A DNA stretch of 64,000 nt from a phage. Shown piece after piece: positions 1 through 14,196 of this stretch. Numbering within the stretch: position 1 is the stretch's first letter; each line of letters begins with the position of its first letter. The notes beneath the pieces were generated by a model. That model searched no databases. It saw nothing but the letters and a program-made list of their open reading frames with translations, and was not told the DNA's origin. Made by a program: the position numbers and the translations under genes. The DNA is taken from sequence record OZ346228.1; one strand, 5' to 3'.

Positions 1-351
1 ACATCTGACGGTCAAACTGAAAGAATTTATTACTCCAAGGCAAACACCTACCGCCTAGATGTAAGAATTACCTACTCCGGTGCTGCGCTTTCTACAACCG
101 AAAAAGATGCCATTATAGAGGCTCTTTTGCAGGTTGTTAACGGACTGGATGTTGCAGATACGTTGTATAATATCCAATTGGTAGGTGCTGCATCTGCTGC
201 TGTGTCAATAGGCAGATTTAATAGGCTGGTAATTCAAGTTAAATCCGTAGGAGCTTCTGATGAAGCTTACACTACAAACGATATTGTTGCGAACATGACC
301 GAGGTGTTTGACCTCGACGAAAGTAATATAACTTTCCAACAAACTATTTAA
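1..351 (+). CDS. C-terminal fragment of tail/baseplate-like structural protein (5' end outside window)
   Basis: Frame 1 is open from position 1 to the stop at 349-351; sits directly upstream of the tail-fibre module. Confidence 0.5.
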   Translation, partial: TSDGQTERIYYSKANTYRLDVRITYSGAALSTTEKDAIIEALLQVVNGLDVADTLYNIQLVGAASAAVSIGRFNRLVIQVKSVGASDEAYTTNDIVANMTEVFDLDESNITFQQTI

Positions 352-362
352 GGCGGCGAGAT

Positions 363-1049
363 ATGGCAGAGATTAAGTCGGATGTTAACCACATCCACAC
401 TCTGCCAGATTTTGTTCAGGGAGGTCTTGACTACCTGCCTGGAGATTTTCTGGCTGAGAAGGTTAATTTAGTCACATTCTTAACCGTATACCTTAAAAGG
501 TTGGAGGATGTTGATAAGATGCTGGTAGGTTTGGCTGAAGGAAGATTGCTTAACAATGCCAGCGGAAGATACCTTGACGAAGTTGGTAATCAACTTGGTA
601 TTCTTAGGAATGGACTTTCAGATGCTGATTTTCGTGCCACACTAATTATTCAGCAGGCCGCAGCATCAATGGGCGGGACTCGCGAAGATGTCATCTCCAC
701 CTTGCGACAATTGTTCGGAAGAGACAATTTCGATACGTGGAAAGGAGACAACTTCAGGTTTGACATAAATATTAGAAAAACTTGCTTTGACATATTGCAG
801 TCTATCGATCAGATCTTAGATATGCTACCATTGCCTTGTCATTTGCGTCTTACAGAATCGCAAGGGCAAGCTTTTGGTTTTGAAGGGGACTCTACAGCTC
901 TTGGCTTCGGATCAGTATGGGAAGAAAACCAGTTTGGAGTTGGTGGACTGGCTACTTTGCTGTATGTTCCTGACGTAAGACCTGATTGGGACACCACAAC
1001 CATTTATTGTGAAAGTATTACAGTAAACGCAACTAGACAGGAGGGTTAA
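363..1049 (+). CDS. hypothetical tail/baseplate-associated protein
   Basis: 228-aa ORF with ATG start; stop overlaps the next start (ATGA-style coupling); position in tail module. Confidence 0.5.
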   Translation: MAEIKSDVNHIHTLPDFVQGGLDYLPGDFLAEKVNLVTFLTVYLKRLEDVDKMLVGLAEGRLLNNASGRYLDEVGNQLGILRNGLSDADFRATLIIQQAAASMGGTREDVISTLRQLFGRDNFDTWKGDNFRFDINIRKTCFDILQSIDQILDMLPLPCHLRLTESQGQAFGFEGDSTALGFGSVWEENQFGVGGLATLLYVPDVRPDWDTTTIYCESITVNATRQEG

Positions 1050-3121
1050 TGGCAACAGCTGTTTTTAAACCTTACCGTGATTACTCTACAATGGCTGCAC
1101 GGTTTCATTACCGAACAGTTCAGGATACTGCCGTTCCTGGTAGGGATTATGATCATGTTGAGGGCGATGTAACTATCCCAGTTGGGGCAACCAGTATTGA
1201 GATCCCCGTGGAAATTGTTGACAAATTACCCAACAGGTTGCCAAGAAGCTTCTTTATGGAGTTTTCATCAAAATCTCAAGGGGTGATGATTGGAACACAA
1301 AGGGCGAAATGTACAATAGTTTCAGATGAGAATCTTGACAGGATATCTTGGGATACTGTTGAGGAGAGAATGTTTCACCCAAGATATTGGGTTACAACCA
1401 CTCAGCAGACTGAAAGTACCTGTATTGTTGCAGATAACAACTGTTGTATTAACCGTTTAGTGTCAAGAACATATGGAGGTATGGCTGGGTGCATTTGGGA
1501 AACAGTTGACAAGTATGACCATTTCGGTATTGGGTTTGATGATCACTATGAGATGAGAAACACCAAGCTTTGGTTCAGAATGTCAATAACCAACGCCAGC
1601 AACTTCTCCACTCCTGAAAAGATGATTATGACTGTAGACCTTGTTGATGGCACAATCATCTATGTTCCTTTAGCTCAATATGCTGTCAGCATCTCAGAGG
1701 ATAAGAATGTTGCAGAAATTCATATTGATTTTGAGGACTGCGTCGGGATGGACCAGAACAACAACATGATGGGTGTTGATCCTCGGCAGGTGAGAAGGAT
1801 TTTAATACCGCTTATGCCTAAAGACTGGGTAAGTAATAGCACAGACCCGAGAACGGAAAATGTAAAGTGTGAGTTGCGCCTAGATCTGCTTCAGCCAGAC
1901 ACAGGCTGGAAAATGATGCAACTTAACAATATCCAGGTGAGAGAGCACGATGTTGGGATCTGCACCGCATATGACGATATGTGGAACGTGTCTCCTTTAA
2001 GGGTGTTGAACAATATCAAGCGTCTGGGCTATACCGGAACCATAAACCATTATGTTGGTATGAGTCATTATTATGACTACACATGGTCAGGAACCCAATG
2101 GTCTATAAACAGAACAGGAGCGCTAAACGCTGCAGCTTATAAATGGCATGATGATTTTATGTACAATGCCAAACGACATAACTTCGACGTTATGCAATCT
2201 GTAAGTTTTGAGCTTTTCAGCGATGCCTGCCCGTTGGAATGGACCCAAAGAGACTGGAACGATAACTACGCTAAAACAGGGTATACACCTTGTAGCTACC
2301 TCCTGTCTCCAACCATTGAAGAGGGTATGAATTTCCTTACTGCAGTATTTAAGAATTTTGCATCAGCCGCTATGAGAAACAACCTGCCAGTGATTATGCA
2401 GGTTGGTGAACCGTGGTGGTGGTACAATACCGATACTCGTAGACCTTGTATTTATGATTACCCTACAAAACAGGCGTTTTATGATGAGACAGGCGAGTAT
2501 GCATTAGATATTGGGACTATTGACGATCCTAAAACTGGCGGTGTTTACGATAAGTATGTAGCATTTTGTCGTGGTAAGCTTGGCGCTCGTATTGCGGCTA
2601 TTTCAAAGGCAATAAAGGCACACGCTGCATCAGCTCAGATGACAGCTCTGCTGTTTTTCCCAACCATTATGGAAACCGAGCTTACGCAAAAGCTTAACCT
2701 TGCTGACCAATATAAAAAGGAAGCAGGTGCTCTTGATTTCTTCTGCACCGAGTGCTACGATTGGGTGATGCAGGGAGGTATTGAAAAGGCAAAAGAGTCT
2801 GTAAACATACCTATCGTTAAGTTAGGTTGGCAACCGTCTGAAATACAATACCTTGCAGGGTTCGTTCCTAGTAAAGAGCTTGCTCCGGTATATGGCTACG
2901 ACCCAACCAGGAATTACCAAGAATTTTTATGGAGATGTATCTGCGGAAACATGGCAACCATAGAGTATAGATACCCTGAGGTAAAACAGTATGTGTGGGC
3001 ATACCCGCAAGTAATGTCTGACAGCATCACTGTTACAGCCAGAGATTCTACCGTGCTTCATATGGGGCAGGTTGCTCTGAAAGGGTATGTAGAAGATGTT
3101 GTCCCTCCAGACTTCTCATAA
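1049..3121 (+). CDS. hypothetical structural protein (690 aa)
   Basis: Long uninterrupted ORF, translationally coupled to the upstream gene; lies before the tail-fibre genes. Confidence 0.55.
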   Translation: MATAVFKPYRDYSTMAARFHYRTVQDTAVPGRDYDHVEGDVTIPVGATSIEIPVEIVDKLPNRLPRSFFMEFSSKSQGVMIGTQRAKCTIVSDENLDRISWDTVEERMFHPRYWVTTTQQTESTCIVADNNCCINRLVSRTYGGMAGCIWETVDKYDHFGIGFDDHYEMRNTKLWFRMSITNASNFSTPEKMIMTVDLVDGTIIYVPLAQYAVSISEDKNVAEIHIDFEDCVGMDQNNNMMGVDPRQVRRILIPLMPKDWVSNSTDPRTENVKCELRLDLLQPDTGWKMMQLNNIQVREHDVGICTAYDDMWNVSPLRVLNNIKRLGYTGTINHYVGMSHYYDYTWSGTQWSINRTGALNAAAYKWHDDFMYNAKRHNFDVMQSVSFELFSDACPLEWTQRDWNDNYAKTGYTPCSYLLSPTIEEGMNFLTAVFKNFASAAMRNNLPVIMQVGEPWWWYNTDTRRPCIYDYPTKQAFYDETGEYALDIGTIDDPKTGGVYDKYVAFCRGKLGARIAAISKAIKAHAASAQMTALLFFPTIMETELTQKLNLADQYKKEAGALDFFCTECYDWVMQGGIEKAKESVNIPIVKLGWQPSEIQYLAGFVPSKELAPVYGYDPTRNYQEFLWRCICGNMATIEYRYPEVKQYVWAYPQVMSDSITVTARDSTVLHMGQVALKGYVEDVVPPDFS

Positions 3122-3133
3122 TCAGGAGATAAA

Positions 3134-4174
3134 ATGTCAAAACCTAGTTTTCCATTAGAGATTTGGGCAGAGGAGGATCAGGTTCTGCCTAACACCCACA
3201 GACAGAACAGGCTACGCCCGATCGATGATTTGTGGAGAAAAGGTTGGGATCTTGGTCAAAAGCCATCCTGTGAAGAACTTAACTATATTTTCAATATGCT
3301 CGGAACTTGGGCAAAATACATTGCTGACGAGCAGATCCCCGCTCAAGAAGGCCGTTATCTGGTACGTGATAATAACTTGAGCGATCTTTTGAACATCCCT
3401 GTTGCCCGTAGAAACCTTGGGATTATCACTAAGGAAGAGGCAGACGCCAGGTATGTAAAAGTTACAGGTGATACAATGACAGGCCCCTTGGGGTTGCAAC
3501 GTATCAACTTTAAAGCTGCCGAGACAGATAAGGCTTGGATAGAGACAACTATTGGCCCAGATAAGACAACTCTCGACTTTGGGTTAAGTGATAATACCGG
3601 GTCGTTTGATGATGGTGGTACATCTACAGTGGATGCGTTTCGTTGGAGATTCCAGCCAACTCAGCCGGATATTAATCCAGAGTTCACTTTGATGTACCTT
3701 AACGCGATCACGGCTAATCGTGCGCTGTTGAAAGTGGTAGGCAATGTTGAAGTTGTCGATAACATGAGGTGCAATAACCTTACTATCAGCAATACAGCAA
3801 CATTCACCAACTGTAATGTGGCTAGTCAGTTGACGGCTGGGTCAGTATATGTTAATGGTGGTGCAAGTTGTGACAGTATGGTTGTAAGAAGCCAGCACTG
3901 TGTTGTCGGTAACAGAAATGTGGTGCGCTCCGTGAATGGAGTGACGGCTAACGGTAACGGTGATGTAACGATCACTATCCCGCAGACAGGTGTGCAAGAC
4001 ATCAGAATCGGTGCAAGACTTGTGGACGGCGTTTCTGAATCTCCAATCCGCAACGGCTACGTTGTCACAGGCTGGCATTTCGGTGACAAAAAAGAGATGC
4101 GTGGTTCAACCTACTGGGCAGGACCCTTACAAAAACTTGTAAATGGTCAATGGATCACTGTTAATTATGCATAG
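3134..4174 (+). CDS. tail fibre protein (paralog 1)
   Basis: 346 aa; GDTMTG-type fibre motif (VKVTGDTMTGPLGL); N- and C-termini conserved with ORF 5184-6230 (C-terminal QKLVNGQWITVNYA); followed by a Tfa-like chaperone. Confidence 0.7.
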   Translation: MSKPSFPLEIWAEEDQVLPNTHRQNRLRPIDDLWRKGWDLGQKPSCEELNYIFNMLGTWAKYIADEQIPAQEGRYLVRDNNLSDLLNIPVARRNLGIITKEEADARYVKVTGDTMTGPLGLQRINFKAAETDKAWIETTIGPDKTTLDFGLSDNTGSFDDGGTSTVDAFRWRFQPTQPDINPEFTLMYLNAITANRALLKVVGNVEVVDNMRCNNLTISNTATFTNCNVASQLTAGSVYVNGGASCDSMVVRSQHCVVGNRNVVRSVNGVTANGNGDVTITIPQTGVQDIRIGARLVDGVSESPIRNGYVVTGWHFGDKKEMRGSTYWAGPLQKLVNGQWITVNYA

Positions 4175-4188
4175 ATCGGAGGACTAGC

Positions 4189-4773
4189 ATGAAAATACTT
4201 CAAGAGTTTAAACTTTACCAACCAGGATCTGGCGAATACCACTCCAACAAGGAAACCAAGGAGCTGACCCCTCAAGAGGTAGAGGATTACACCGCATACA
4301 CTGGGTATTTTTTACGTAATGATGATGGTGATTGGTATGTGCAGTCACGAACATTACGACAAGAAAATCCAGGGTGTATCTTCCTACTTGTTGACGAGAA
4401 GGGAATTCTTAAGACATCTACAGAAGAACCTGATGCCTTATGGCCTGCTCCAGGTCTTCGTGTGGTTATCGCCAAAAAAGAAGAGGTACCAGAAAACATT
4501 ATGCTTCACCACGACGCTTTGCGTTTAGTTGGTGATGAATTTGTCACAGACAATGAATTCTTTGTTCAACAGGCAGAGGGTGTCATAGAGACAGAACTTG
4601 CTTGGGCTACTGCTAGAATTGGTGCCTATCAAGACATGATTGACCTTGAATATGATCTTACTGATGACCAGAAACGTAACATCAGAGATTTGAAAATGTA
4701 CAGGGTAAAACTTCTTGAAATAGATACATCTAAAGCCCCTGACATTTTCTTCCCAGAGCGACCTACCCTCTAA
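4189..4773 (+). CDS. tail fibre assembly protein (lambda Tfa / P2 G-like)
   Basis: 194 aa; C-terminal KMYRVKLLEIDTSKAPDIFFP matches the conserved Tfa C-terminus ([21 protein letters not shown] in lambda); GGAGG RBS. Confidence 0.75.
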   Translation: MKILQEFKLYQPGSGEYHSNKETKELTPQEVEDYTAYTGYFLRNDDGDWYVQSRTLRQENPGCIFLLVDEKGILKTSTEEPDALWPAPGLRVVIAKKEEVPENIMLHHDALRLVGDEFVTDNEFFVQQAEGVIETELAWATARIGAYQDMIDLEYDLTDDQKRNIRDLKMYRVKLLEIDTSKAPDIFFPERPTL

Positions 4774-4784
4774 GAGGAGGTGTT

Positions 4785-5099
4785 GTGGAGTTGGATTTGG
4801 CGGCATTGTACGGTATCTGCATGGGTACCGTTGTCCCGATCTGTGTATGGGCTTTCAACCAGTGGCACACCAAATGGAAAGACATTTCCAAGAGGTTGGA
4901 TGAGCTGGAGAAAGACCTCATCTTAGTGAAAAACAGTATGGTTACAAAAGATAAACTTGATTCCGTTATAGAGACCCGGTTAAGCAAGCTAGAGGCCGAT
5001 ATTAACGACCTTAAGCAGGATGTCAGGACAGATGTCTCCGGCATCAGAGCCGATGTACAAAAGATTTTGCACATGCTCGTAGAGCATAGTAAAAGGTAA
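4785..5099 (+). CDS. hypothetical protein, N-terminal hydrophobic segment plus coiled coil
   Basis: 104 aa, probable GTG start after GAGGAGG; hydrophobic N-terminus and heptad-rich C-terminal half. Confidence 0.45.
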   Translation: MELDLAALYGICMGTVVPICVWAFNQWHTKWKDISKRLDELEKDLILVKNSMVTKDKLDSVIETRLSKLEADINDLKQDVRTDVSGIRADVQKILHMLVEHSKR

Positions 5100-5183
5100 A
5101 CAAAGGTCAGAACGGAAAGGACTCCTCTTGCATTTTGTTCCCTAAAGTGTTAAAATAGTCCTAAGGAATTTTCTCAGGAGAAC

Positions 5184-6230
5184 GTGATGACTAAACCAGT
5201 TATCCCTCTTGATATTTGGGCCAATCAGGATGTTGTGCTTGAAAATACGGGAGAGTTGAATAAGTCTCAACCAAAAAAAGAAGAGAGATTGAAAGGTTGG
5301 GATATGACACAAAGAGTGGCATGTGAAGTTGTTAACTTTGAACTTCACATGCTTTCTGCGTGGTTAAAGCATTTAACAGAAGATGTTGTCCCAGGATGGG
5401 ATAATAGATTCTTAAGGGTCACTAATAATCTAGCAGACGTTCCAGACAAAGCTGCTGCACGTCAAGTTCTCAATGTATACTCGCCTGAAGAAATGGACGA
5501 TCTGTATGTTGACAAGTCTGGAGACATAATGACTCAGACTCAAACTTTAGGCCTTCAAAGAATCGAGTTTGCATCTGCGTCAACAGACAATGCGGCAATA
5601 TATACCACCATAACTCCAGACAAGACGACGATGGACTTCTGGATTATGGACAACATCGGTGGTGCTGACGGCACAGACCTTGATGATCCTTCTCACCAAA
5701 TAGACGGGTTCCGTTGGAGATTTCAACCTTCTGGTGGGCAGCCTGTGTTTTCGGCTATGAAGCTCAATGCTATAACTGCCAACCGTGCAAGACTGGCTAT
5801 CCAAGGAAATCTTGAATGCAACGATGCAAAAAGTTCCTCTGCAAATGCCAATGCGGTCACGATACCAAGAGCCACTGTTAACGGACAACAATCCTGCGGA
5901 AGCGCTCAAATAGGTGGAAGAGTTGATTGTAACGATGAAACCGTTAGAGGCCAATATGCAACCGTTGGTGGAAGAAACGTGGTCCGCAGGGTAAACGGTA
6001 ACAGCGCAGACGGTAGTGGTAACCTTACTGTCCCTATGCCCAGTAGAGGGGTTGACGATGTAAGGATAGCGAACCGTTTCAAAACCACCTACAGAGAGTC
6101 AAGGGTCTACCCTGGACATGTGATGTGCTCTGGTAACTACGCTTATAAACACCCTTATCAAGGTGATTACTGGACAGGTGCTATCCAAAAACTTGTAAAC
6201 GGTCAATGGATCACTATATCTTATGCTTAA
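5184..6230 (+). CDS. tail fibre protein (paralog 2)
   Basis: 348 aa; shares N-terminus (PLDIWANQD, KGWD) and C-terminus (QKLVNGQWITISYA) with 3134-4174; middle region divergent; KSGDIMT motif. Confidence 0.7.
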   Translation: MMTKPVIPLDIWANQDVVLENTGELNKSQPKKEERLKGWDMTQRVACEVVNFELHMLSAWLKHLTEDVVPGWDNRFLRVTNNLADVPDKAAARQVLNVYSPEEMDDLYVDKSGDIMTQTQTLGLQRIEFASASTDNAAIYTTITPDKTTMDFWIMDNIGGADGTDLDDPSHQIDGFRWRFQPSGGQPVFSAMKLNAITANRARLAIQGNLECNDAKSSSANANAVTIPRATVNGQQSCGSAQIGGRVDCNDETVRGQYATVGGRNVVRRVNGNSADGSGNLTVPMPSRGVDDVRIANRFKTTYRESRVYPGHVMCSGNYAYKHPYQGDYWTGAIQKLVNGQWITISYA

Positions 6231-6241
6231 AAAGAGGGTAA

Positions 6242-6508
6242 ATGAAACTAACTCAGTTTTTATGGGGACTGGTTGCGGAATCTGATGACCCTACGAAAGT
6301 ATCCCAATCTAAGCTATGGTCGAACATAGGCATGGTGGTGATGACTGGGGTGTTTATTCATATGGGGTATAATGATACGCTTCCTGAATGGTATGCGTGG
6401 ATATATGCACCTTCAGTAGCCTGCCCCCAGCTTATTAGCAAATTCATCTCGCTCCGGTGGGGTTGCCAGCACCCTGACCACGTTAAAAACGAAGAGCAAA
6501 AAGCTTAA
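6242..6508 (+). CDS. hypothetical small protein
   Basis: 88-aa ORF with RBS (AGAGGG) upstream; between fibre paralog and the 581-aa gene. Confidence 0.4.
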   Translation: MKLTQFLWGLVAESDDPTKVSQSKLWSNIGMVVMTGVFIHMGYNDTLPEWYAWIYAPSVACPQLISKFISLRWGCQHPDHVKNEEQKA

Positions 6509-6517
6509 GGAGAAATC

Positions 6518-8263
6518 ATGGCGCAAGACATGACAAGCTTCGAGCAGGCGGTAGATCAAGTAATTGTTGATTCTGAACGTTTGCACTTGATTGTCAACGG
6601 TAACGCTGTGGATGAAGTTGTCGTAGAGGATGGGACCACTATCCCTACGGTACGAAAAGCCATGCTTGACACCCTTTATTTTAAAACGCCACCAATCCCT
6701 TGGGCGTATGGTGCATCCACAACAGTTTTTAACCAGTTGTATGAGTTTAAAGGGGATACAGGCACTCAGTGGTGGTACGCCCCAGCAGCATCAAAATCTA
6801 ACCCGGTTAGAATGCCAGCAGATCCTTCACAATCTCCAAACTGGAGATTATACACCGACTCTGCAGTAATGGCAAAATACTACGCAAAACTTAACAGCCC
6901 AAGGTTCGAAGGTGACCCGCGAGTACCTACACCTCCAATGGACGATAAGTCAGAGTCCATAGCAAACACAGAGTTTGTTGTTGACTATGTTGATAGCATA
7001 TTTAAAGCCATGGAGGGGATGAAAGTTACTGTAGGATCTTTGGTGGTAAAAGGTCTTACAGAACTCGCTAACACTATAGTTGGTGGCACCCTTACCTTAC
7101 ATGGACCTGTTAATGGGGCAGATTCTACTGCACGCTTTAGGAATCTAATCCTCACGGCAAATACTTCTACACTTACTTTTGCGTGGAGCGATCCTAAGCA
7201 TGCAGACTGGAGAAGTACAGAGCTGCAACCTCATGAAGTGTCCACCCACAGGGTTATAGCTGACACTATAACTTCTGGGAAACCAGTGGCTAATAATAAC
7301 GATGTGCATTTTGATGGTCTGGGTAATAACTTTTTTGACTACGTGTACATTCGTGGTAATGCCATGAAGGCAGCAACCGAACCGACATTGCAGGTAGATG
7401 GGACCACCAGGGTTAAGAACCTTGAGGTGACAGGTACCGTTACAGGGATAACATACTCTGTCGATGGCACCATGATCTACCCTAGCTATATTGAAAGCAC
7501 TGGTGATGCATTGATAAATGGCGATTTGGAGGTTGGCGGGTCTGTAGTTATTCGAGGTACGGCCTCTATCCAAAACATAGCTCTGAATACCTTAAGAGTC
7601 AATGAGCGTGCAACTTTTGAAGGAGAAGGGCTTACAGCCAACAAAGGTGTAATTACCGAGCTGACAACAACCACTTTAACTGCAACAGCTGCAAACTCTG
7701 AAAACTGCAACGTTACCCGCAACTTGCAGGTAAATGGAGATGTCAGTTTAAACGCAGCAGGGCCTGGCACCACCTCTGTTCACAACCTTGAAATATCCGG
7801 CACGGTGACTGGGTGGTTGCCTGACTTCTCTAATGTCACCTTTGTCTGTAATGGCATTAACTCCAGTGGCAAGATAACCACCTCTCAAGAAATTGAGGCG
7901 GGTAAAACCATTACTGCCCCTACTTTCCACGCAGGAAAGGTAGATTTTGATTTAGAGGAGGTTGACGCGTCCAGTGGGACATGGACACCTAACGGGCAGG
8001 CCAGTATGTATGTTGTTCACGCGAAAGGGGATTTTACAATAGGACAGTGGCCTGGGACATCAGCGGAAGATAAACCTTATCCATTCACTGCGGTTATCTA
8101 TGTAATTCAGGATGCTGTAGGTCACAACGTGACTTTGCACGATAAGTATGCTATCCTGTCGGCAACACCTGTTATTAACAACAAGGCTAACAGTGTTACC
8201 TTGCTGCAATTAACGTATTGTGGTGTTGGTGATATCGTAGACGTAGTAATTGCACAACGTTAA
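6518..8263 (+). CDS. putative tail fibre / tailspike-like protein
   Basis: 581 aa; Thr/Gly/Val-rich repetitive beta-type sequence (LEVTGTVTGITY, NLQVNGDVSL); followed by a rho-independent terminator. Confidence 0.55.
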   Translation: MAQDMTSFEQAVDQVIVDSERLHLIVNGNAVDEVVVEDGTTIPTVRKAMLDTLYFKTPPIPWAYGASTTVFNQLYEFKGDTGTQWWYAPAASKSNPVRMPADPSQSPNWRLYTDSAVMAKYYAKLNSPRFEGDPRVPTPPMDDKSESIANTEFVVDYVDSIFKAMEGMKVTVGSLVVKGLTELANTIVGGTLTLHGPVNGADSTARFRNLILTANTSTLTFAWSDPKHADWRSTELQPHEVSTHRVIADTITSGKPVANNNDVHFDGLGNNFFDYVYIRGNAMKAATEPTLQVDGTTRVKNLEVTGTVTGITYSVDGTMIYPSYIESTGDALINGDLEVGGSVVIRGTASIQNIALNTLRVNERATFEGEGLTANKGVITELTTTTLTATAANSENCNVTRNLQVNGDVSLNAAGPGTTSVHNLEISGTVTGWLPDFSNVTFVCNGINSSGKITTSQEIEAGKTITAPTFHAGKVDFDLEEVDASSGTWTPNGQASMYVVHAKGDFTIGQWPGTSAEDKPYPFTAVIYVIQDAVGHNVTLHDKYAILSATPVINNKANSVTLLQLTYCGVGDIVDVVIAQR

Positions 8264-8272
8264 TATATCTAA

Positions 8273-8297
8273 CCGCTCCTGACGGGGCGGTTTTCTT
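8273..8297 (+). terminator. rho-independent terminator after 581-aa gene
   Basis: Hairpin CCGCTCC-TGAC-GGGGCGG followed by TTTTCTT. Confidence 0.6.
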
Positions 8298-8311
8298 ATC
8301 TGGAGAACACA

Positions 8312-11300
8312 ATGCTTCCAATCCCTTTGCTAAAACTTGGTCGTCATTTCCTCGATAAGAGGGGTGGAATTAAGGAACTTGCTGTTCTGTCATACCCAAT
8401 AGACAACAGTGATGGTACAAGCAACACAGTATCCTATGTAAATAGCTTAGCTATACTTTTTGATGATGGTCAGCTTAATATTACTGGCTATAACAAGTTC
8501 GGAGAGTGCCGCACTGGGGATCGTAGCCCTATAAACTATCCGAGCGAAACAGCCTGGAATGTTGATCATGTGTGGAGAGCAGACCGCGCGTTTGTGATCC
8601 GGACTTTTGATAACCAGTTTTTCTACATCGGCTGCACTGCAGGTCTTATCGGATCCACTGCGGCAGGCGGTAATGATGTTTGCGTAAACGAGTGGACACC
8701 ACTCCCAGAGCAGATTGTTAAAGGATTGCACCTTGACACCCACCCAGAACGCCTTATTGAGGTGATGGGCGGTATTAACAACACTGTCTGGGTTATTGCA
8801 GAGGCAGAAGGTACTGGCATACTTAACCTGTATGGATCTGGTAACAACACCTACGGATCTTTGCATGTAGATAAAAATCAGCATGCAACCCCTGTAAAGA
8901 TTGGTGAGACATCGGAAAATCCTGAAACAGGCCCTTGGAAAAACCCAAGCATCAACTGTGAGGTGCATGACAACTCTGTTATTTTCGGTGGTCCTAGGGG
9001 TTTCTGGATTGCTGGATACGACTTTCTGAGAAATAACAGTAGAAACGACCTTGTTTGGCCTCCTGTGCAGATTACTCGTAACGATTTGAGGGGCATTCCT
9101 GCAGATGAGGAGTGGAAAGGGTTTATGTGTGGTCCTAACGGGGCAGTAATTGCTACACAGAGGATGCATAGACCCGATGACCAGCAGCTTGTTAACGTAT
9201 TTTATGGTCAAAACATTTGGGGAGATGATACATGGCGGGAACTGAATATCACCTACACCCATGAGGTAATGATGGCTCGTGGGTACGGCACAAGTGGCAT
9301 TTTCTTCAATAATGGCACTAAGCAGTATCGTGGGTTCTCTCGCAACTTATGTAATGATATTGGTGCACAATCTGCAAACAATAGTCCTAGGGCCGATTTT
9401 ATCCACTATCAAGCTCTTGCTACAGCTAAATATGTTGAGCAACGCCTGCCAGTCAGCTGGACAGAGAGTGTTTATTTCCAAGGCATCCACAGAGAAGGTT
9501 TCTTAGGGACCTTTACTGTTGTTAATGGTAAACTTTGGTGGTCAGGTATCCCAAGGGGAAGTTTTACAGGCTCTAATAACCTGTTTGGCGGCAGACTTAA
9601 TAGTCAGGGGTTCACAGAGGTTCCTGAGAATTGGTATAAAAATGTCCCAGTAGACAGTTGGGGCGTTGATGATATTTTCGACGTTAATGGTGTTAGCAGT
9701 GTTAGCAATATCTACATTGGTGACACGGTCAAGATGAAATTGAAGCCTCAGCCAGAGGGAGCTACGTTCATCATTGACAAGATTGAACTGGTGAATGCTG
9801 CAGGTACGGTTGTTACAGATGCAAATTACCAATTCTCCACCAACTGGAACCACGGCGGGGCCAACGAAGTTGTTGTTACCCAGTATAACAGAAATGTTAA
9901 CAGACGTGGCCTGTACTCTGTAAAAATAACCTATCATGACAAGCATGGCACAGGCAGAACTCACACGACAAGGACTTTGAACTGGAACACCATAGTTCCT
10001 GCGTATCCGTCCAACGGCAAGTGGCATACCGTTGGTAGAAACAAGCAGTTCCATGTTAACGATACTGTATACTTTGGGCTGAATGGGACCCAGCCTGCAG
10101 TAGAAGGGGATACATCGTATATGGTCAGACTCCACAGAATGGATGCTGGATCAGTCACTTATGATGTGACCCAAGAGATCTACGATCAAAGACGCGCCAC
10201 GTATGACAATATTGTGAAAACACAAGCCTTGTGGGAGTTCAATCCTAATGGCAAGGGTGGTAAAATGTTGCAGGTTAATGAGCAGAACGGAACGTCGTTG
10301 ACTGTTCACGAACACCCAGACCCTTGGCCTGATCCTGGAAAACCTCACCCGGGAGCTCGTACACTGAAAATTGTCAGCCATGATGCAGGATATTTCGGAA
10401 TACGCTGGGAAGCTACAGTAAGATATGTCGACGGGACAACAAACAACATAGGGATTACACTTGGCGGCACTAGTGAAGATAGCTCGCTGAAAATTGCCTA
10501 CACGCCCAGAGGTATCTCTATTGATAATATGGATGTTGTTCGCAATGGTTACGGCGATGTGAATGTCAAAGTTACTCTTGGCGAACATCTTGGTGGGGAA
10601 AGGATCATCATGTATGCCTTTGATCATGATCCACGCACCAATGGAACTTATGCAAATCAGGCATGGAGTTACCTGATAAATGCACCTGAGCCGAATACTA
10701 AAGAGTTCTACTATGGCATGAAGCGAGATGTGTGCAAGAAAACAGGAACACATGACTGGATTGCTATCTGCGTTAAAGATGAGCGCACAGCTTGGGATGA
10801 GCCTGTTAACAGATGGTTCATAGGTATTCCTACCAGAAGTGATAAGTATGTCGCAGAATATATTGTATGCATGGGCGGTACCAACCTAAACATGTGTTGG
10901 AACGAAGATGTAAACAAATACTCTGATTATGACTATATGAGGGATTACTCTTGTAATTTGTGGTTTAACCAAACTACAGGTTACCCTCCAAGACAGGCGA
11001 GAGTAAACCCTGCAATCTTCACAGACACGCAGGTTTTCTTGACAAAACAGGCCAACGAGGTTCAGACCTTCAAGAATAAATACGATCCTAACAAGTGGTT
11101 CTACAACTGTTACGGCGCATTTTTCTGGGGACCTGGTGAGTTACCTGGTGGTGGATCTTGCTTGAATGAGGCAACTTACGCAAGTGACTACATCATGGGG
11201 CAGGTCAAGAAGTATAAGATAATCCCCGGTCCTGAGACTTTGGGCAATGCCGTTGACCCTTATATCATCATGACTGCACTGAGATCAAACATGGATGGGA

Positions 11301-13948
11301 CATCCATGTCCATGCAAATTCCGGTAACAAACGGATACAAACGTGTTGTGATGATCATTAAGTGCGACCTGATAGGTAAACAAGTTCTTGCAGAAAACGG
11401 GACATCCACACATCCTTTTGAGATCGCTCTGCACTATCAGTTTGCTGACTCACCTTTTGCAGGGGATAAGAGAATATCTGATACAGACGCACAGCGTTGT
11501 AAGAAAGTATTGTTGGGTGCAGGTTGGTGGTGGTATGAGTTTGATTTAACAGACAAATTCACCGACACGTCTAAAGTTGTAACAGGACTTCGTCTAGACC
11601 TTGGCGAGAACATGCACAAAGCTGTTTGTGATGGCACCTATGGTGACCCTACAATATACCTAAAATATGTTTCTTTTGAGCATCCGGAAGATGTTGTCTA
11701 CGGTCCAAAACTGAGATTGTTTGGCAGCTGGATTGCAAAAGATAGGGTAGGCATGGGTAAGAAGGTAAGAGGGTTCTTGGTTGATGCAGGAACAGAAGAC
11801 ATGCTGGTTAATGCAGTATGGCCTGAATTACCTGGGACTCAGTGGGACAACTCAGCCAAATCTATAAACTGGTTTAACATTCATAGGGCCATGTGGACCA
11901 CTAACTGCTACTTGTGGAGAGAGCTTAACGATCAGGCCTTTGGATTCAGCGAGGGTAGAAGGATGGCGATCATTTGCTGGACAACACTGCAAAGATGTTA
12001 TGACCATGACTATGAGATTGGGGGCAGGGCATGGAAAAATATCAGGGATAGAATCATAACCAATTTTGCAGACGACAACGGTGGTGGAGCACATAACTTT
12101 GGCACAAGCCGACTCATCCATTTGAACGGATCCTCAGCCTACAAGAAAGAAGGTTACTCTGGGTCTATGATCGAGCGGGGTCTGGTGAAAGATGCTCGCG
12201 TATTGATGGGCCAGCAACTTGCTGCCGCAGTAGGTCCCAGCGCAGTGCAGTCGGTTAAACCAGCGTGGTTCGATATTCCATTGTGGTCACCCGGAACACC
12301 GGGAACTGCTGCAATCAACCCTACCACTGGGGATCTGGAAATCTCCTGGGAAGACCTGAAGCAGGTCGGTGGTTGGGACAAAACAGGGTATCAGGTTCAA
12401 TGGTGGAGGGCTGACGGATCTTTAGCCGCTGATGAGTTTGTTAAGGACAATTTCTACACTATGTCCTCTGCAAAAGCACAGCAATTATTTGGTCAGGCAA
12501 CTCCGTCAACGATCACCATGTCTATGTGCTGTAAAGACAACAGGACTGGAGCTTTGGGGCCAAGGGTTGCTAAAGTTTTCTCAGGTATTAAATGGAATCT
12601 ACCTGTCCAAAGTATTTCATGGAAGCAAATAGGTGATAACAAGCTGCTGGTTACCCCTGCCTGTCAGTTCAACGCAACTCTTAACGTTGATCCTGCTGTT
12701 GCGGCAAACTCAGCTAAAGCTTCTGACTTCTCTGTGTCTAACACTGCTATGGCAGATGTGAGGAAGATTGACACGCTGAACGCCAGAATTACCTGTAAAA
12801 ACACTTATGGCACATTCCAAATCATCAACAACTTCACAGATGCTGATTCTAAGGTAGTGAGGACAGCAAGCCAGACTCTGAGTTTAGGAACTCTGGCCTA
12901 TGCGGCCCTGATCACCGAACAGTCGGCAACACTCCAAGGAGGTGGTGTAGGCAAGTCCATTACAACACCTGTGTGGAAGCCAAATGAGTGGGTTGTGTTT
13001 GATTTGACTGTGGACTTCTCCAGCGATAATAACTGGACATGGGTAAGGAATTGTTTGTCACAGTTGATGGGCGGTCCAAGCTCCGTTAGTGATAGTCACG
13101 ACTCTACTGACCCGAGTGTGTTCCAGGTAGGTAAAACTCACCCAGAGACTGGAGAAACGTTGCCTGACAGGAAGTATGCTTTGGTTTGCATCTCTTACGG
13201 GAAGGCAGATGTCGCCTTCTCAGGGACACACACTTATAACGGAACCTACAACTTCTCAAGGAAGTATAGTCTCAAAGCAGGGAACATTATAGACGAGGTT
13301 GGTGCGCTGTATAATCCGGGCAACGGCATAGGGATTGTTGGTGGTAAACTGCAGATGCAGGAACCTTCTATTACCCCTTCCAACGTATCCGGGATTAGAA
13401 AGACTTGGGAAAGTAGTAATACCAACATTGCAACAGTGGATGCCACCACAGGACTGGTAACATTTAAAGCTACTGGGAATGTCACCATAAAGTTTGTAGT
13501 TACTGATGATGTAGGGCGCAAAACGTCTTCAACATCTTTTACTGTCAAACAGATGGCACCACAGTGGAGAATGTGGATAGGTACAGCAACAAACGGGGCA
13601 TACCCTAATCCGTCAGGTACTTCTGGTATGAAGACTTTCTCTACAAGCAAACCGATGGAGTACGGCAGCGGTCCTAAGGTAGGGCAGATGGTGTACTTTG
13701 GTGCGTATATTCCTGAAATTATAGGGCTTCCTAGAAGTCAGCTTCAGTTGCTGTTTGGGGCTGGTGTTGACGATCTTGCCACTTTCGGGTATAGCGACAA
13801 CATCGAGGCTGCAAGGAGTTCAGGATGGGTAGGGTTCAGAATGGAGTCTGGAAAGGAAGGCAGGATTCTAGGGACAGCCTCTATAGGTGTTATGTTCCCT
13901 GGTGACCAGCAGTATCGTCTAGAAGCCTACGCAACCTTTTCTCGTTAA
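8312..13948 (+). CDS. large virion-associated protein with C-terminal Big_2-like Ig domain
   Basis: 1878-aa ORF; residues near the C-terminus (IATVDATTGLVTFKATGNVTIKFVVTD) resemble a bacterial Ig-like group 2 domain; strong terminator follows. Confidence 0.6.
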   Translation: MLPIPLLKLGRHFLDKRGGIKELAVLSYPIDNSDGTSNTVSYVNSLAILFDDGQLNITGYNKFGECRTGDRSPINYPSETAWNVDHVWRADRAFVIRTFDNQFFYIGCTAGLIGSTAAGGNDVCVNEWTPLPEQIVKGLHLDTHPERLIEVMGGINNTVWVIAEAEGTGILNLYGSGNNTYGSLHVDKNQHATPVKIGETSENPETGPWKNPSINCEVHDNSVIFGGPRGFWIAGYDFLRNNSRNDLVWPPVQITRNDLRGIPADEEWKGFMCGPNGAVIATQRMHRPDDQQLVNVFYGQNIWGDDTWRELNITYTHEVMMARGYGTSGIFFNNGTKQYRGFSRNLCNDIGAQSANNSPRADFIHYQALATAKYVEQRLPVSWTESVYFQGIHREGFLGTFTVVNGKLWWSGIPRGSFTGSNNLFGGRLNSQGFTEVPENWYKNVPVDSWGVDDIFDVNGVSSVSNIYIGDTVKMKLKPQPEGATFIIDKIELVNAAGTVVTDANYQFSTNWNHGGANEVVVTQYNRNVNRRGLYSVKITYHDKHGTGRTHTTRTLNWNTIVPAYPSNGKWHTVGRNKQFHVNDTVYFGLNGTQPAVEGDTSYMVRLHRMDAGSVTYDVTQEIYDQRRATYDNIVKTQALWEFNPNGKGGKMLQVNEQNGTSLTVHEHPDPWPDPGKPHPGARTLKIVSHDAGYFGIRWEATVRYVDGTTNNIGITLGGTSEDSSLKIAYTPRGISIDNMDVVRNGYGDVNVKVTLGEHLGGERIIMYAFDHDPRTNGTYANQAWSYLINAPEPNTKEFYYGMKRDVCKKTGTHDWIAICVKDERTAWDEPVNRWFIGIPTRSDKYVAEYIVCMGGTNLNMCWNEDVNKYSDYDYMRDYSCNLWFNQTTGYPPRQARVNPAIFTDTQVFLTKQANEVQTFKNKYDPNKWFYNCYGAFFWGPGELPGGGSCLNEATYASDYIMGQVKKYKIIPGPETLGNAVDPYIIMTALRSNMDGTSMSMQIPVTNGYKRVVMIIKCDLIGKQVLAENGTSTHPFEIALHYQFADSPFAGDKRISDTDAQRCKKVLLGAGWWWYEFDLTDKFTDTSKVVTGLRLDLGENMHKAVCDGTYGDPTIYLKYVSFEHPEDVVYGPKLRLFGSWIAKDRVGMGKKVRGFLVDAGTEDMLVNAVWPELPGTQWDNSAKSINWFNIHRAMWTTNCYLWRELNDQAFGFSEGRRMAIICWTTLQRCYDHDYEIGGRAWKNIRDRIITNFADDNGGGAHNFGTSRLIHLNGSSAYKKEGYSGSMIERGLVKDARVLMGQQLAAAVGPSAVQSVKPAWFDIPLWSPGTPGTAAINPTTGDLEISWEDLKQVGGWDKTGYQVQWWRADGSLAADEFVKDNFYTMSSAKAQQLFGQATPSTITMSMCCKDNRTGALGPRVAKVFSGIKWNLPVQSISWKQIGDNKLLVTPACQFNATLNVDPAVAANSAKASDFSVSNTAMADVRKIDTLNARITCKNTYGTFQIINNFTDADSKVVRTASQTLSLGTLAYAALITEQSATLQGGGVGKSITTPVWKPNEWVVFDLTVDFSSDNNWTWVRNCLSQLMGGPSSVSDSHDSTDPSVFQVGKTHPETGETLPDRKYALVCISYGKADVAFSGTHTYNGTYNFSRKYSLKAGNIIDEVGALYNPGNGIGIVGGKLQMQEPSITPSNVSGIRKTWESSNTNIATVDATTGLVTFKATGNVTIKFVVTDDVGRKTSSTSFTVKQMAPQWRMWIGTATNGAYPNPSGTSGMKTFSTSKPMEYGSGPKVGQMVYFGAYIPEIIGLPRSQLQLLFGAGVDDLATFGYSDNIEAARSSGWVGFRMESGKEGRILGTASIGVMFPGDQQYRLEAYATFSR

Positions 13949-13961
13949 CAAGGGGATAAAT

Positions 13962-13990
13962 AAAAAGGGGCCAAACGGCCCCTTTCTTTT
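13962..13990. terminator. bidirectional terminator between convergent genes
   Basis: AAAAA-GGGGCC-AAAC-GGCCCC-TTTCTTTTT; A-tract upstream and T-tract downstream. Confidence 0.7.
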
Positions 13991-13995
13991 TATAG

Positions 13996-14196
13996 TTAGT
14001 AATACTCCCAACATGCCCCATCTTCAGACGGCTTGACGCGCTTACCTTTATGGTCAACATAGGTATAGCCACAACCTTCACAAATAACAGGTGCTGCATA
14101 GCCTTCCTTCCACTGATCCTCAGTGATCAGACCTTCCAAATCTTTGCAGTCAAAGCCAAACAACTCTTCAGAGCAATCTTTACAAAAATCAGCCAT
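13996..14196 (-). CDS. small zinc-ribbon protein
   Basis: 66 aa with CxxC...CxxC cysteine pairs (CKDC, CEGC). Confidence 0.45.
   Translation of the reverse strand: MADFCKDCSEELFGFDCKDLEGLITEDQWKEGYAAPVICEGCGYTYVDHKGKRVKPSEDGACWEYY

Follow-up and report, generated by a model that had tools for sequence, protein, structure and literature searches.

Paired short tail fibre genes and a single Tfa-type chaperone at the rV5-like locus of a Vequintavirus

Are two similar tail fibre genes that stand close together in a phage genome the product of a cassette duplication with an exchanged central region, or is one of them an extra copy placed among older neighbours? The question is raised by positions 3134 to 6508 of OZ346228.1, a phage sequence of 64,000 nucleotides (nt), the whole of which is called the window here. 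The original prediction, made from the sequence alone, had read this region as a duplicated cassette of a fibre gene and a small open reading frame (ORF), with shared ends, a swapped centre and a lambda Tfa-like chaperone after the first fibre. We found that the region matches a published short tail fibre locus and that its organization is better described in another way. Our reading of the module as a whole, which we hold with considerable confidence, is that an ancestral short tail fibre (STF1) and its Tfa-type chaperone are accompanied by a genus-specific second short tail fibre (STF2), that both fibres are present in virions, and that the chaperone is likely shared. The pairing of short fibres with one chaperone, including its interpretation, is already known and has been in the literature since 2013.

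A megablast search with positions 3000-8300 returned 118 phage records with more than 90% identity. Escherichia phage naswa was the best match, with 99.6% nucleotide identity over the full length, and the others were rV5-like phages of the genus Vequintavirus, including MaxBurger, which was 98.1% identical to the window locus. The region was collinear with rV5 ORF33-ORF29 (98-99.6% over 5.3 kb), gene order and sizes matched those of rV5, CarlMeissner and naswa, and the genes of the locus had rV5 counterparts, gene for gene, from ORF34 down to ORF28. Judged by its sequence, the window is the DNA of a Vequintavirus (rV5-like) Escherichia coli myophage and the feature is its published short tail fibre locus. 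In rV5, the same genes (gp33/gp32/gp31/gp30/gp29) lie in the same order and the Tfa protein is 100% identical to that of the window; nothing substantial differs, the window having a 2-nt deletion in an intergenic hairpin and a few substitutions. The annotated relatives carry, in order, genes for a 690-amino-acid (aa) protein, a 346-aa 'short tail fiber protein', a 194-aa 'tail fiber chaperone', a 104-aa hypothetical protein, STF2 as a 347-aa 'short tail fiber protein', an 88-aa hypothetical or membrane protein, and a 581-aa lateral fibre. The BASEL annotation likewise gives 'short tail fiber protein' twice and 'tail fiber chaperone' at the locus. For STF1, the protein was 100% identical in several Vequintavirus records, which label it 'short tail fiber protein', and nearly all records of the genus had at least 95% identity to STF1 and to STF2.

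The rV5 genes have been described in some detail. Kropinski et al. 2013 (PMC3606486) reported that gp30 (347 aa) and gp33 are paralogs with 42.3% identity, that both resemble T4 gp12 (1PDI) by HHpred, and that gp30, gp33 and gp32 are detected in rV5 virions by mass spectrometry, so that assembly into virions is not confined to one of the two fibres; they hypothesized that gp30 and gp33 recognize two lipopolysaccharide (LPS) chemotypes. The BASEL study of Maffei et al. 2021 (PMC8594841) reported that the Vequintavirinae sensu stricto encode a chaperone and a pair of paralogous short tail fibres, with homology to Mu GpS/GpU and to the locus of phi92-like phages, which has a single fibre; allelic variation was small, and all these phages depended on the LPS outer core (waaG). 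RBPseg (2025) reported electron cryomicroscopy (cryo-EM) density for this fibre class in MaxBurger, with a Mu-like fibre tip. Since rV5-like phages serve in cocktails and typing sets for pathogenic E. coli, their terminal receptor-binding proteins are relevant to host-range engineering.

The two fibre genes are on the + strand, as predicted. STF1 (rV5 gp33 ortholog; phrog_4465) occupies 3134..4174 and encodes 346 aa, and STF2 (rV5 gp30 ortholog), a Vequintavirus-specific paralog, occupies 5187..6230. The predicted second ORF had started at 5184; the start was taken as ATG 5187, likelier than GTG 5184, because a ribosome-binding site (AGGAG) lies at 5176-5180 and because rV5 gp30 and all annotated relatives have 347 aa. 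In a BLASTP comparison, STF1 and STF2 aligned end to end (43% identity, 356 columns, E 1e-95), in agreement with the prediction of two homologous tail fibre genes. Overall, the identity was ~45% for the proteins and 51% for the whole genes at the nucleotide level, with five indels of 1-6 residues each in the aligned region. In STF1 numbering, identity was 38% at aa 1-90, 59% at aa 111-215, 31% at aa 216-260, 53% at aa 261-290, 26% at aa 291-326 and 75% at aa 327-346. The best conserved long block is thus the centre (aa 111-215), the very part that had been described as swapped, and the divergence lies in the distal shaft (aa 216-260) and the tip loops (aa 291-326). As for the ends, which had been described as shared, the C-terminal similarity was reproduced, and the first 90 residues proved to be among the less similar parts of the alignment. 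The decapeptide QKLVNGQWIT was present exactly as claimed in both fibres, at aa 333 in STF1 and aa 334 in STF2. The GDTMTG-type motif was exact in STF1 and degenerate in STF2, which reads GDIMTQ with a 2-aa insertion. Nucleotide identity in overlapping 25-codon windows ranged from 0.32 to 0.64 along the entire gene, without mosaic breakpoints.

We then consider the genes that follow the fibres. The small ORF after STF1 and its chaperone, orf104 (rV5 gp31; 4785..5099, + strand), belongs to phrog_5345, of unknown function, and the one after STF2, orf88 (rV5 gp29; 6242..6508, + strand), is a small putative membrane protein of phrog_1322 ('membrane protein'). Both are real genes, with ratios of nonsynonymous to synonymous substitution (dN/dS) of 0.036 and 0.037, respectively; the prediction was correct in placing a small ORF after each fibre, and incorrect in treating them as parts of a duplicated unit, as they belong to different families and both flank a single fibre in five other genera. 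The order found in these genomes was wedge protein, small baseplate protein, one short fibre, Tfa, a 104-112-aa protein, a 133-157-aa membrane protein (phrog_7451), a ~83-91-aa protein and the next fibre; the synteny set covered Seunavirus (PVP-SE1 and SSE121), Certrevirus (CB7), Mydovirus (Mydo), Henunavirus (pEp_SNUABM_01) and the phage TH18, which is unclassified. The slot between orf104 and orf88 (5100-6241 in the window) thus holds STF2 in Vequintavirus and the phrog_7451 gene in the other genera, as exemplified by the genomes L003 (4312-4785) and L007 (5520-5993). The PVP-SE1 record notes four transmembrane domains for the phrog_7451 protein. A tblastn search with this protein matched 107 records, 16 of them from Escherichia phages, with no Vequintavirus among the matches listed, and tblastn found no phrog_7451 remnant in the window. 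With the fibres as tblastn queries, only Vequintavirus records had two matching places; records of every other genus had one. STF1 was 51% identical to PVP-SE1 gp46 and 45% identical to STF2, and the best match of STF2 outside the genus was at 44%. Because STF1 is closer to PVP-SE1 gp46 than to STF2 and the duplication is limited to the genus, STF1 is regarded as the ancestral ortholog and STF2 as a lineage-specific extra copy; by position as well as by sequence, STF1 corresponds to the one short tail fibre of other Vequintavirinae and to phi92 gp147. Gene order and family membership indicate that only the fibre gene is duplicated and that the small ORFs are ancestral neighbours of different families. 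The replacement of a conserved membrane-protein gene by STF2, together with the co-varying 3' tract described below, is a small evolutionary footnote to the published locus.

Homology searches pointed to a similar architecture for the two proteins. In a sequence search of the PDB, STF1 aa 1-108 matched the short tail fibre of phiTE (9cuy_c, E 1.4e-19) and the N-terminus of STF2 matched the same chain (E 2e-8), so that the N-terminal ~100 residues of both fibres are homologous to 9CUY chain c residues 1-111, placing them in the class of wedge-docked fibres. In the phiTE structure (PDB 9CUY/9MJN), residues 3-92 form a trimeric joint that binds the wedge-1 baseplate protein. The phi92 counterpart, gp147, is 'fibre III', present as six trimers on the wedge protein gp145; roles in irreversible adsorption and in setting off contraction have been proposed for it. 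The rV5 wedge proteins are gp36 and gp35, the latter encoded at 363-1049 in the window. At the other end, STF1 aa 286-343 matched Mu GpS (5yvq_A, region GpS 439-503, E 1.7e-6), and a profile of seven short fibres matched GpS with E 5.7e-9. On the strength of these matches, it is highly likely that STF1 and STF2 both belong to the short tail fibres of the baseplate, docking on the wedge by the N-terminus and ending in a Mu-type tip.

The comparison with known systems shows both likenesses and differences. Phi92 gp147 and the phiTE fibre share with the window the homologous N-terminal docking domain and a neighbourhood of wedge protein, fibre, Tfa and small membrane protein, and the tip sequence of STF1 is near that of phi92-like phages. 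However, phi92 and phiTE have one such fibre, with six trimers per baseplate, in place of the two paralogs of Vequintavirus, and the phiTE fibre, at 554 aa, is longer and also contains a coiled coil and immunoglobulin-like domains. Unlike the tip, the N-terminal baseplate-docking domain of these fibres is not Mu-like in sequence. T4 gp12 is a functional analogue, as it is a baseplate-bound short fibre that binds the LPS core for irreversible adsorption; T4 has a single short fibre gene and uses gp57A instead of a Tfa-type chaperone. No T4 gp12 chain was returned at E values up to 1 by phmmer or hmmsearch against the PDB; the HHpred likeness is that of the literature and was not re-run.

We found a difference between the paralogs in the docking domain. 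The residues I30, D32, L33, W34, P44, Y51 and Y62 are at least 90% conserved among 32 homologs, and STF2 departs from them, reading QPKKEERLKGWD where the other homologs read RPIDDLW.KGWD (STF2 aa 29-62; window 5187-5400). This change of motif suggests an altered docking interface in STF2. Because STF2 has lost the near-invariant RPIDDLW...P...Y...Y motif, it may possibly dock at a different site.

The gene after STF1 (4189..4773, + strand; rV5 gp32), which begins 15 nt past the STF1 stop codon, encodes a 194-aa tail fibre assembly chaperone of the Tfa/Mu GpU type. Residues 121-192 matched Pfam PF02413 (Caudo_TAP) with 45.7 bits, above the cutoff of 22.1 (E 9e-12), and the family profile aligned over its full length with Mu GpU (5yvq_B, E 2.6e-21). 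The description as lambda Tfa-like was right as to the Tfa family, PF02413 also holding lambda Tfa; the closest structurally known relative is Mu GpU. A six-frame scan of the window with hidden Markov models found no second Tfa, and none lies after STF2, in line with the claim that a recognizable chaperone follows only the first fibre; by tblastn, Tfa was found at one place per complete Vequintavirus genome. According to the literature, the Mu Tfa protein remains attached to the tip of the fibre in the mature particle, and the chaperone is present in virions both in Mu (GpU) and in rV5 (gp32). By analogy, it is highly likely that the Tfa protein folds at least STF1 and rides on the virion. With a single Tfa in each complete genome, the chaperone is probably shared, and it is likely that it also folds STF2. 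Mu alternates the fibre/chaperone pairs S/U and S'/U' by inversion of the G segment. At the window locus, in contrast, one chaperone accompanies two complete, neighbouring fibre genes, and there is no inversion system.

All five genes of the locus were under purifying selection (dN/dS 0.018 to 0.062). The lowest value was that of STF1 and the highest that of STF2, which evolves faster than STF1 within the genus; in nine genomes, 20 residues were variable in STF2 and 5 in STF1. Two lineages with both paralogs were found, and the divergent L016 lineage has ~70-75% nucleotide identity to the window locus. As a side observation, L016-L018 (Logan contigs ERR6997038_58, SRR27327045_19 and ERR4623478_835) form a Vequintavirus-like metagenomic lineage with the same gene order; their fibres show ~74-78% protein identity, and these genes have no close match among deposited phage genomes.

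A different pattern was seen near the 3' ends of the two fibre genes. The 30-nt tract encoding QKLVNGQWIT (4130..4159 in STF1 and 6186..6215 in STF2, both on the + strand) is nearly identical between the paralogs: they agree at 29/30 positions in the window, and at 30/30 in rV5, Murica, CarlMeissner, AlexBoehm, 206 and MiataMamis, six of the eight relatives that were compared. In L016 (3935-3964 and 6000-6029), both paralogs use CTG/GTC/CAG at the codons where both paralogs of the window use CTT/GTA/CAA, all of these differences being synonymous. This pattern argues, with moderate confidence, for short-tract gene conversion or for selection on the nucleotide sequence. In a whole-gene site-pattern test with L016, there were 23 paralog-concordant sites against 28 sites of the noise pattern, and the enrichment in the last 20 codons was not significant (Fisher P 0.09). 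The argument for gene conversion is thus confined to the 30-nt tract, because the whole-gene test was not significant; NG86 estimates were not computable between the lineages, synonymous divergence being too high.

We also considered a diversity-generating retroelement (DGR) as a source of the variation. The direct repeats found in positions 1-14000 at the settings used were all short and consisted of the 62-nt 3' ends of the two genes (81% identity), which are the longest, and pairs of 26 nt and 20 nt. No template/variable repeat pair of the DGR kind (~100 nt, with adenine differences) was found in this region; reverse transcriptase genes were not searched for exhaustively. The paralogs differ at ~55% of residues over their whole length, with several indels, in accordance with the earlier statement that the variation is not driven by a DGR.

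The gap before STF2, 87 nt long, holds two candidate signals. A terminator-like hairpin with a T-rich run (5110..5139, + strand) follows orf104; in seven relatives, it reads GAACGG...CCGTTC and then TTGCATTTTGTT. All seven have 2 nt (GT) of the hairpin 3' arm that the window lacks, and the stem is kept in the divergent L016 by compensatory changes (AATGAC...GTCATT). A late-promoter-like motif, TGTTAAAATA (5148..5157, + strand), lies 30 nt upstream of the STF2 start. It has one mismatch to the rV5 late-gene motif TggTAaAAtA (Kropinski 2013, PMC3606486) and is kept as TGCTAAAATA in L016. Across the window, this motif had 13 matches compared with 6.8 +/- 2.6 expected, a weak enrichment, and when 2900-8400 was scanned for sigma-70 and terminator consensus sequences, the counts were no different from those of shuffled sequence. 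In the single-fibre genera, the 104-aa gene overlaps the next gene or lies ~70 nt from it. These data suggest that STF2 may begin its own late transcription unit.

On the reading that we prefer, STF1 would be the ancestral fibre common to other Vequintavirinae and phi92 (gp147). Its first ~100 residues would form a trimeric joint docking on the baseplate wedge, as judged from homology to phiTE and phi92, its middle a beta-rich shaft with the GDTMTG motif, and its last ~60 residues a Mu GpS-like receptor-binding tip, at which the Tfa/GpU-type chaperone would nucleate trimerization and probably remain on the virion, as in Mu. STF2, apparently with its own terminator and late promoter, would have been inserted into the phrog_7451 slot, keeping the STF1 architecture and the identical C-terminal strand and differing most in the distal shaft and tip loops. 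Both fibres are built into virions, with the single chaperone most likely folding both, and the two tips most likely recognizing different LPS-core epitopes as terminal receptors. We consider such a difference in binding likely; two specificities are plausible and correspond to the published hypothesis for rV5 gp30 and gp33. Several points weigh against this reading. STF2 by itself had no match to the Mu GpS chain in the PDB sequence search, but it aligns with STF1 throughout. AlphaFold2 monomers computed from a 32-sequence alignment were of low confidence (predicted local distance difference test 63 and predicted template modelling score 0.30 for STF1; 60 and 0.32 for STF2), and Foldseek found no PDB match to the STF1 model below E 0.56; such models are expected for single chains of an intertwined trimer, and the domain boundaries rest on sequence homology. 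The published cryo-EM map of MaxBurger, at 7-9.5 Å, contains one STF-type density in which the paralogs are indistinguishable. In BASEL, allelic variation was small and the phenotype was uniformly waaG-dependent.

The alternatives differ from the preferred reading in what they make of the second gene. A more elaborate version of it, in which STF2 does not compete for the STF1 site and docks elsewhere on the baseplate, and the virion carries two full fibre sets of different LPS-core specificities, served by one chaperone and subject to recurrent gene conversion that keeps the 30 nt for their chaperone-facing C-terminal strand identical, seems doubtful to us. The duplication of a whole cassette, fibre plus accessory ORF, with the central region exchanged for a new specificity, would account for two homologous fibre genes, each with a small ORF at some distance after it, and for their identical C-terminal decapeptide. 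We find it scarcely credible, however, as the centre (aa 111-215, 59%) is the best conserved long block, nucleotide identity in 25-codon windows stays between 0.32 and 0.64 without mosaic breakpoints, and the small ORFs are of different families, both flanking a single fibre in Seunavirus, Certrevirus, Mydovirus, Henunavirus and TH18.

The identical C-terminal strand may also be read as the site at which one chaperone nucleates heterotrimers of STF1 and STF2, which would give only one, mixed kind of fibre. The presence of one Tfa per genome, the 75% identity of the last 20 residues, a decapeptide kept identical in DNA and the single STF-type density in cryo-EM would all fit. Nevertheless, such heterotrimers are very unlikely: with 45% identity and five indels of 1-6 residues, chains wound into one trimer would fall out of register, their N-terminal docking motifs are not alike, and the transcription units are apparently separate. 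We know of no precedent for heterotrimeric Mu-type fibres. That STF2 is a redundant or decaying duplicate without a role of its own is quite improbable too: its dN/dS and amino-acid diversity are ~3-5x those of STF1, and BASEL describes one LPS-core phenotype for all Vequintavirinae, but its dN/dS of 0.062 still denotes strong purifying selection, an intact copy is present in 118/118 matching records and in a lineage at only 70% nucleotide identity, the gene has a ribosome-binding site and a conserved promoter-like motif, and its protein was detected in rV5 virions.

The small proteins of the locus are less well characterized than the fibres. Sequence inspection and weak matches to coiled-coil families indicated that orf104, like orf88 a putative membrane protein, has one N-terminal hydrophobic segment (aa 1-26) followed by coiled-coil-like sequence. 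The hydrophobic segment is kept in homologs from six genera, whose genes without exception come next after that for Tfa. The orf88 protein is conserved across Vequintavirinae and phi92-like phages; in the phi92-like inny, its gene lies away from the fibre gene. In CB7, the fibres carry the note 'MS/MS confirmed' and the homologs of the small ORFs do not. For orf104, orf88 and the 133-157-aa protein, Pfam searches gave nothing, or weak matches (coiled-coil-type, unrelated) well below the curated cut-offs, and the PHROGs labels are 'unknown' or 'membrane protein'. In T4, gene t lies after gene 38, and by analogy these proteins might be the missing holin/antiholin of the genus, a conceivable role for which we found no evidence either way. 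A holin is unidentified in LL12, and gp129 has been proposed as the holin in rV5. The spanin pair lies elsewhere, beside the terminase.

Two further observations concern the gene upstream of STF1 and the database records. The gene at 1049-3121 encodes a 690-aa protein that has a Calx-beta domain along with two domains, N-terminal and TIM-barrel, of a 'non-contractile tail sheath protein' (PF23845, E 4e-80). BASEL annotates this protein as a lateral fibre that carries glycosidase and deacetylase domains. Vequintavirus and TH18 have it, and it is not at that position in PVP-SE1, Mydo or CB7. In addition, we noticed 16-21 GenBank records named 'Campylobacter phage' (e.g. MG065635.1, MG065676.1 and MG065655.1; host Campylobacter jejuni) that are 95-100% identical to the rV5-like or phi92-like locus and are probably mislabelled or contaminant genomes.

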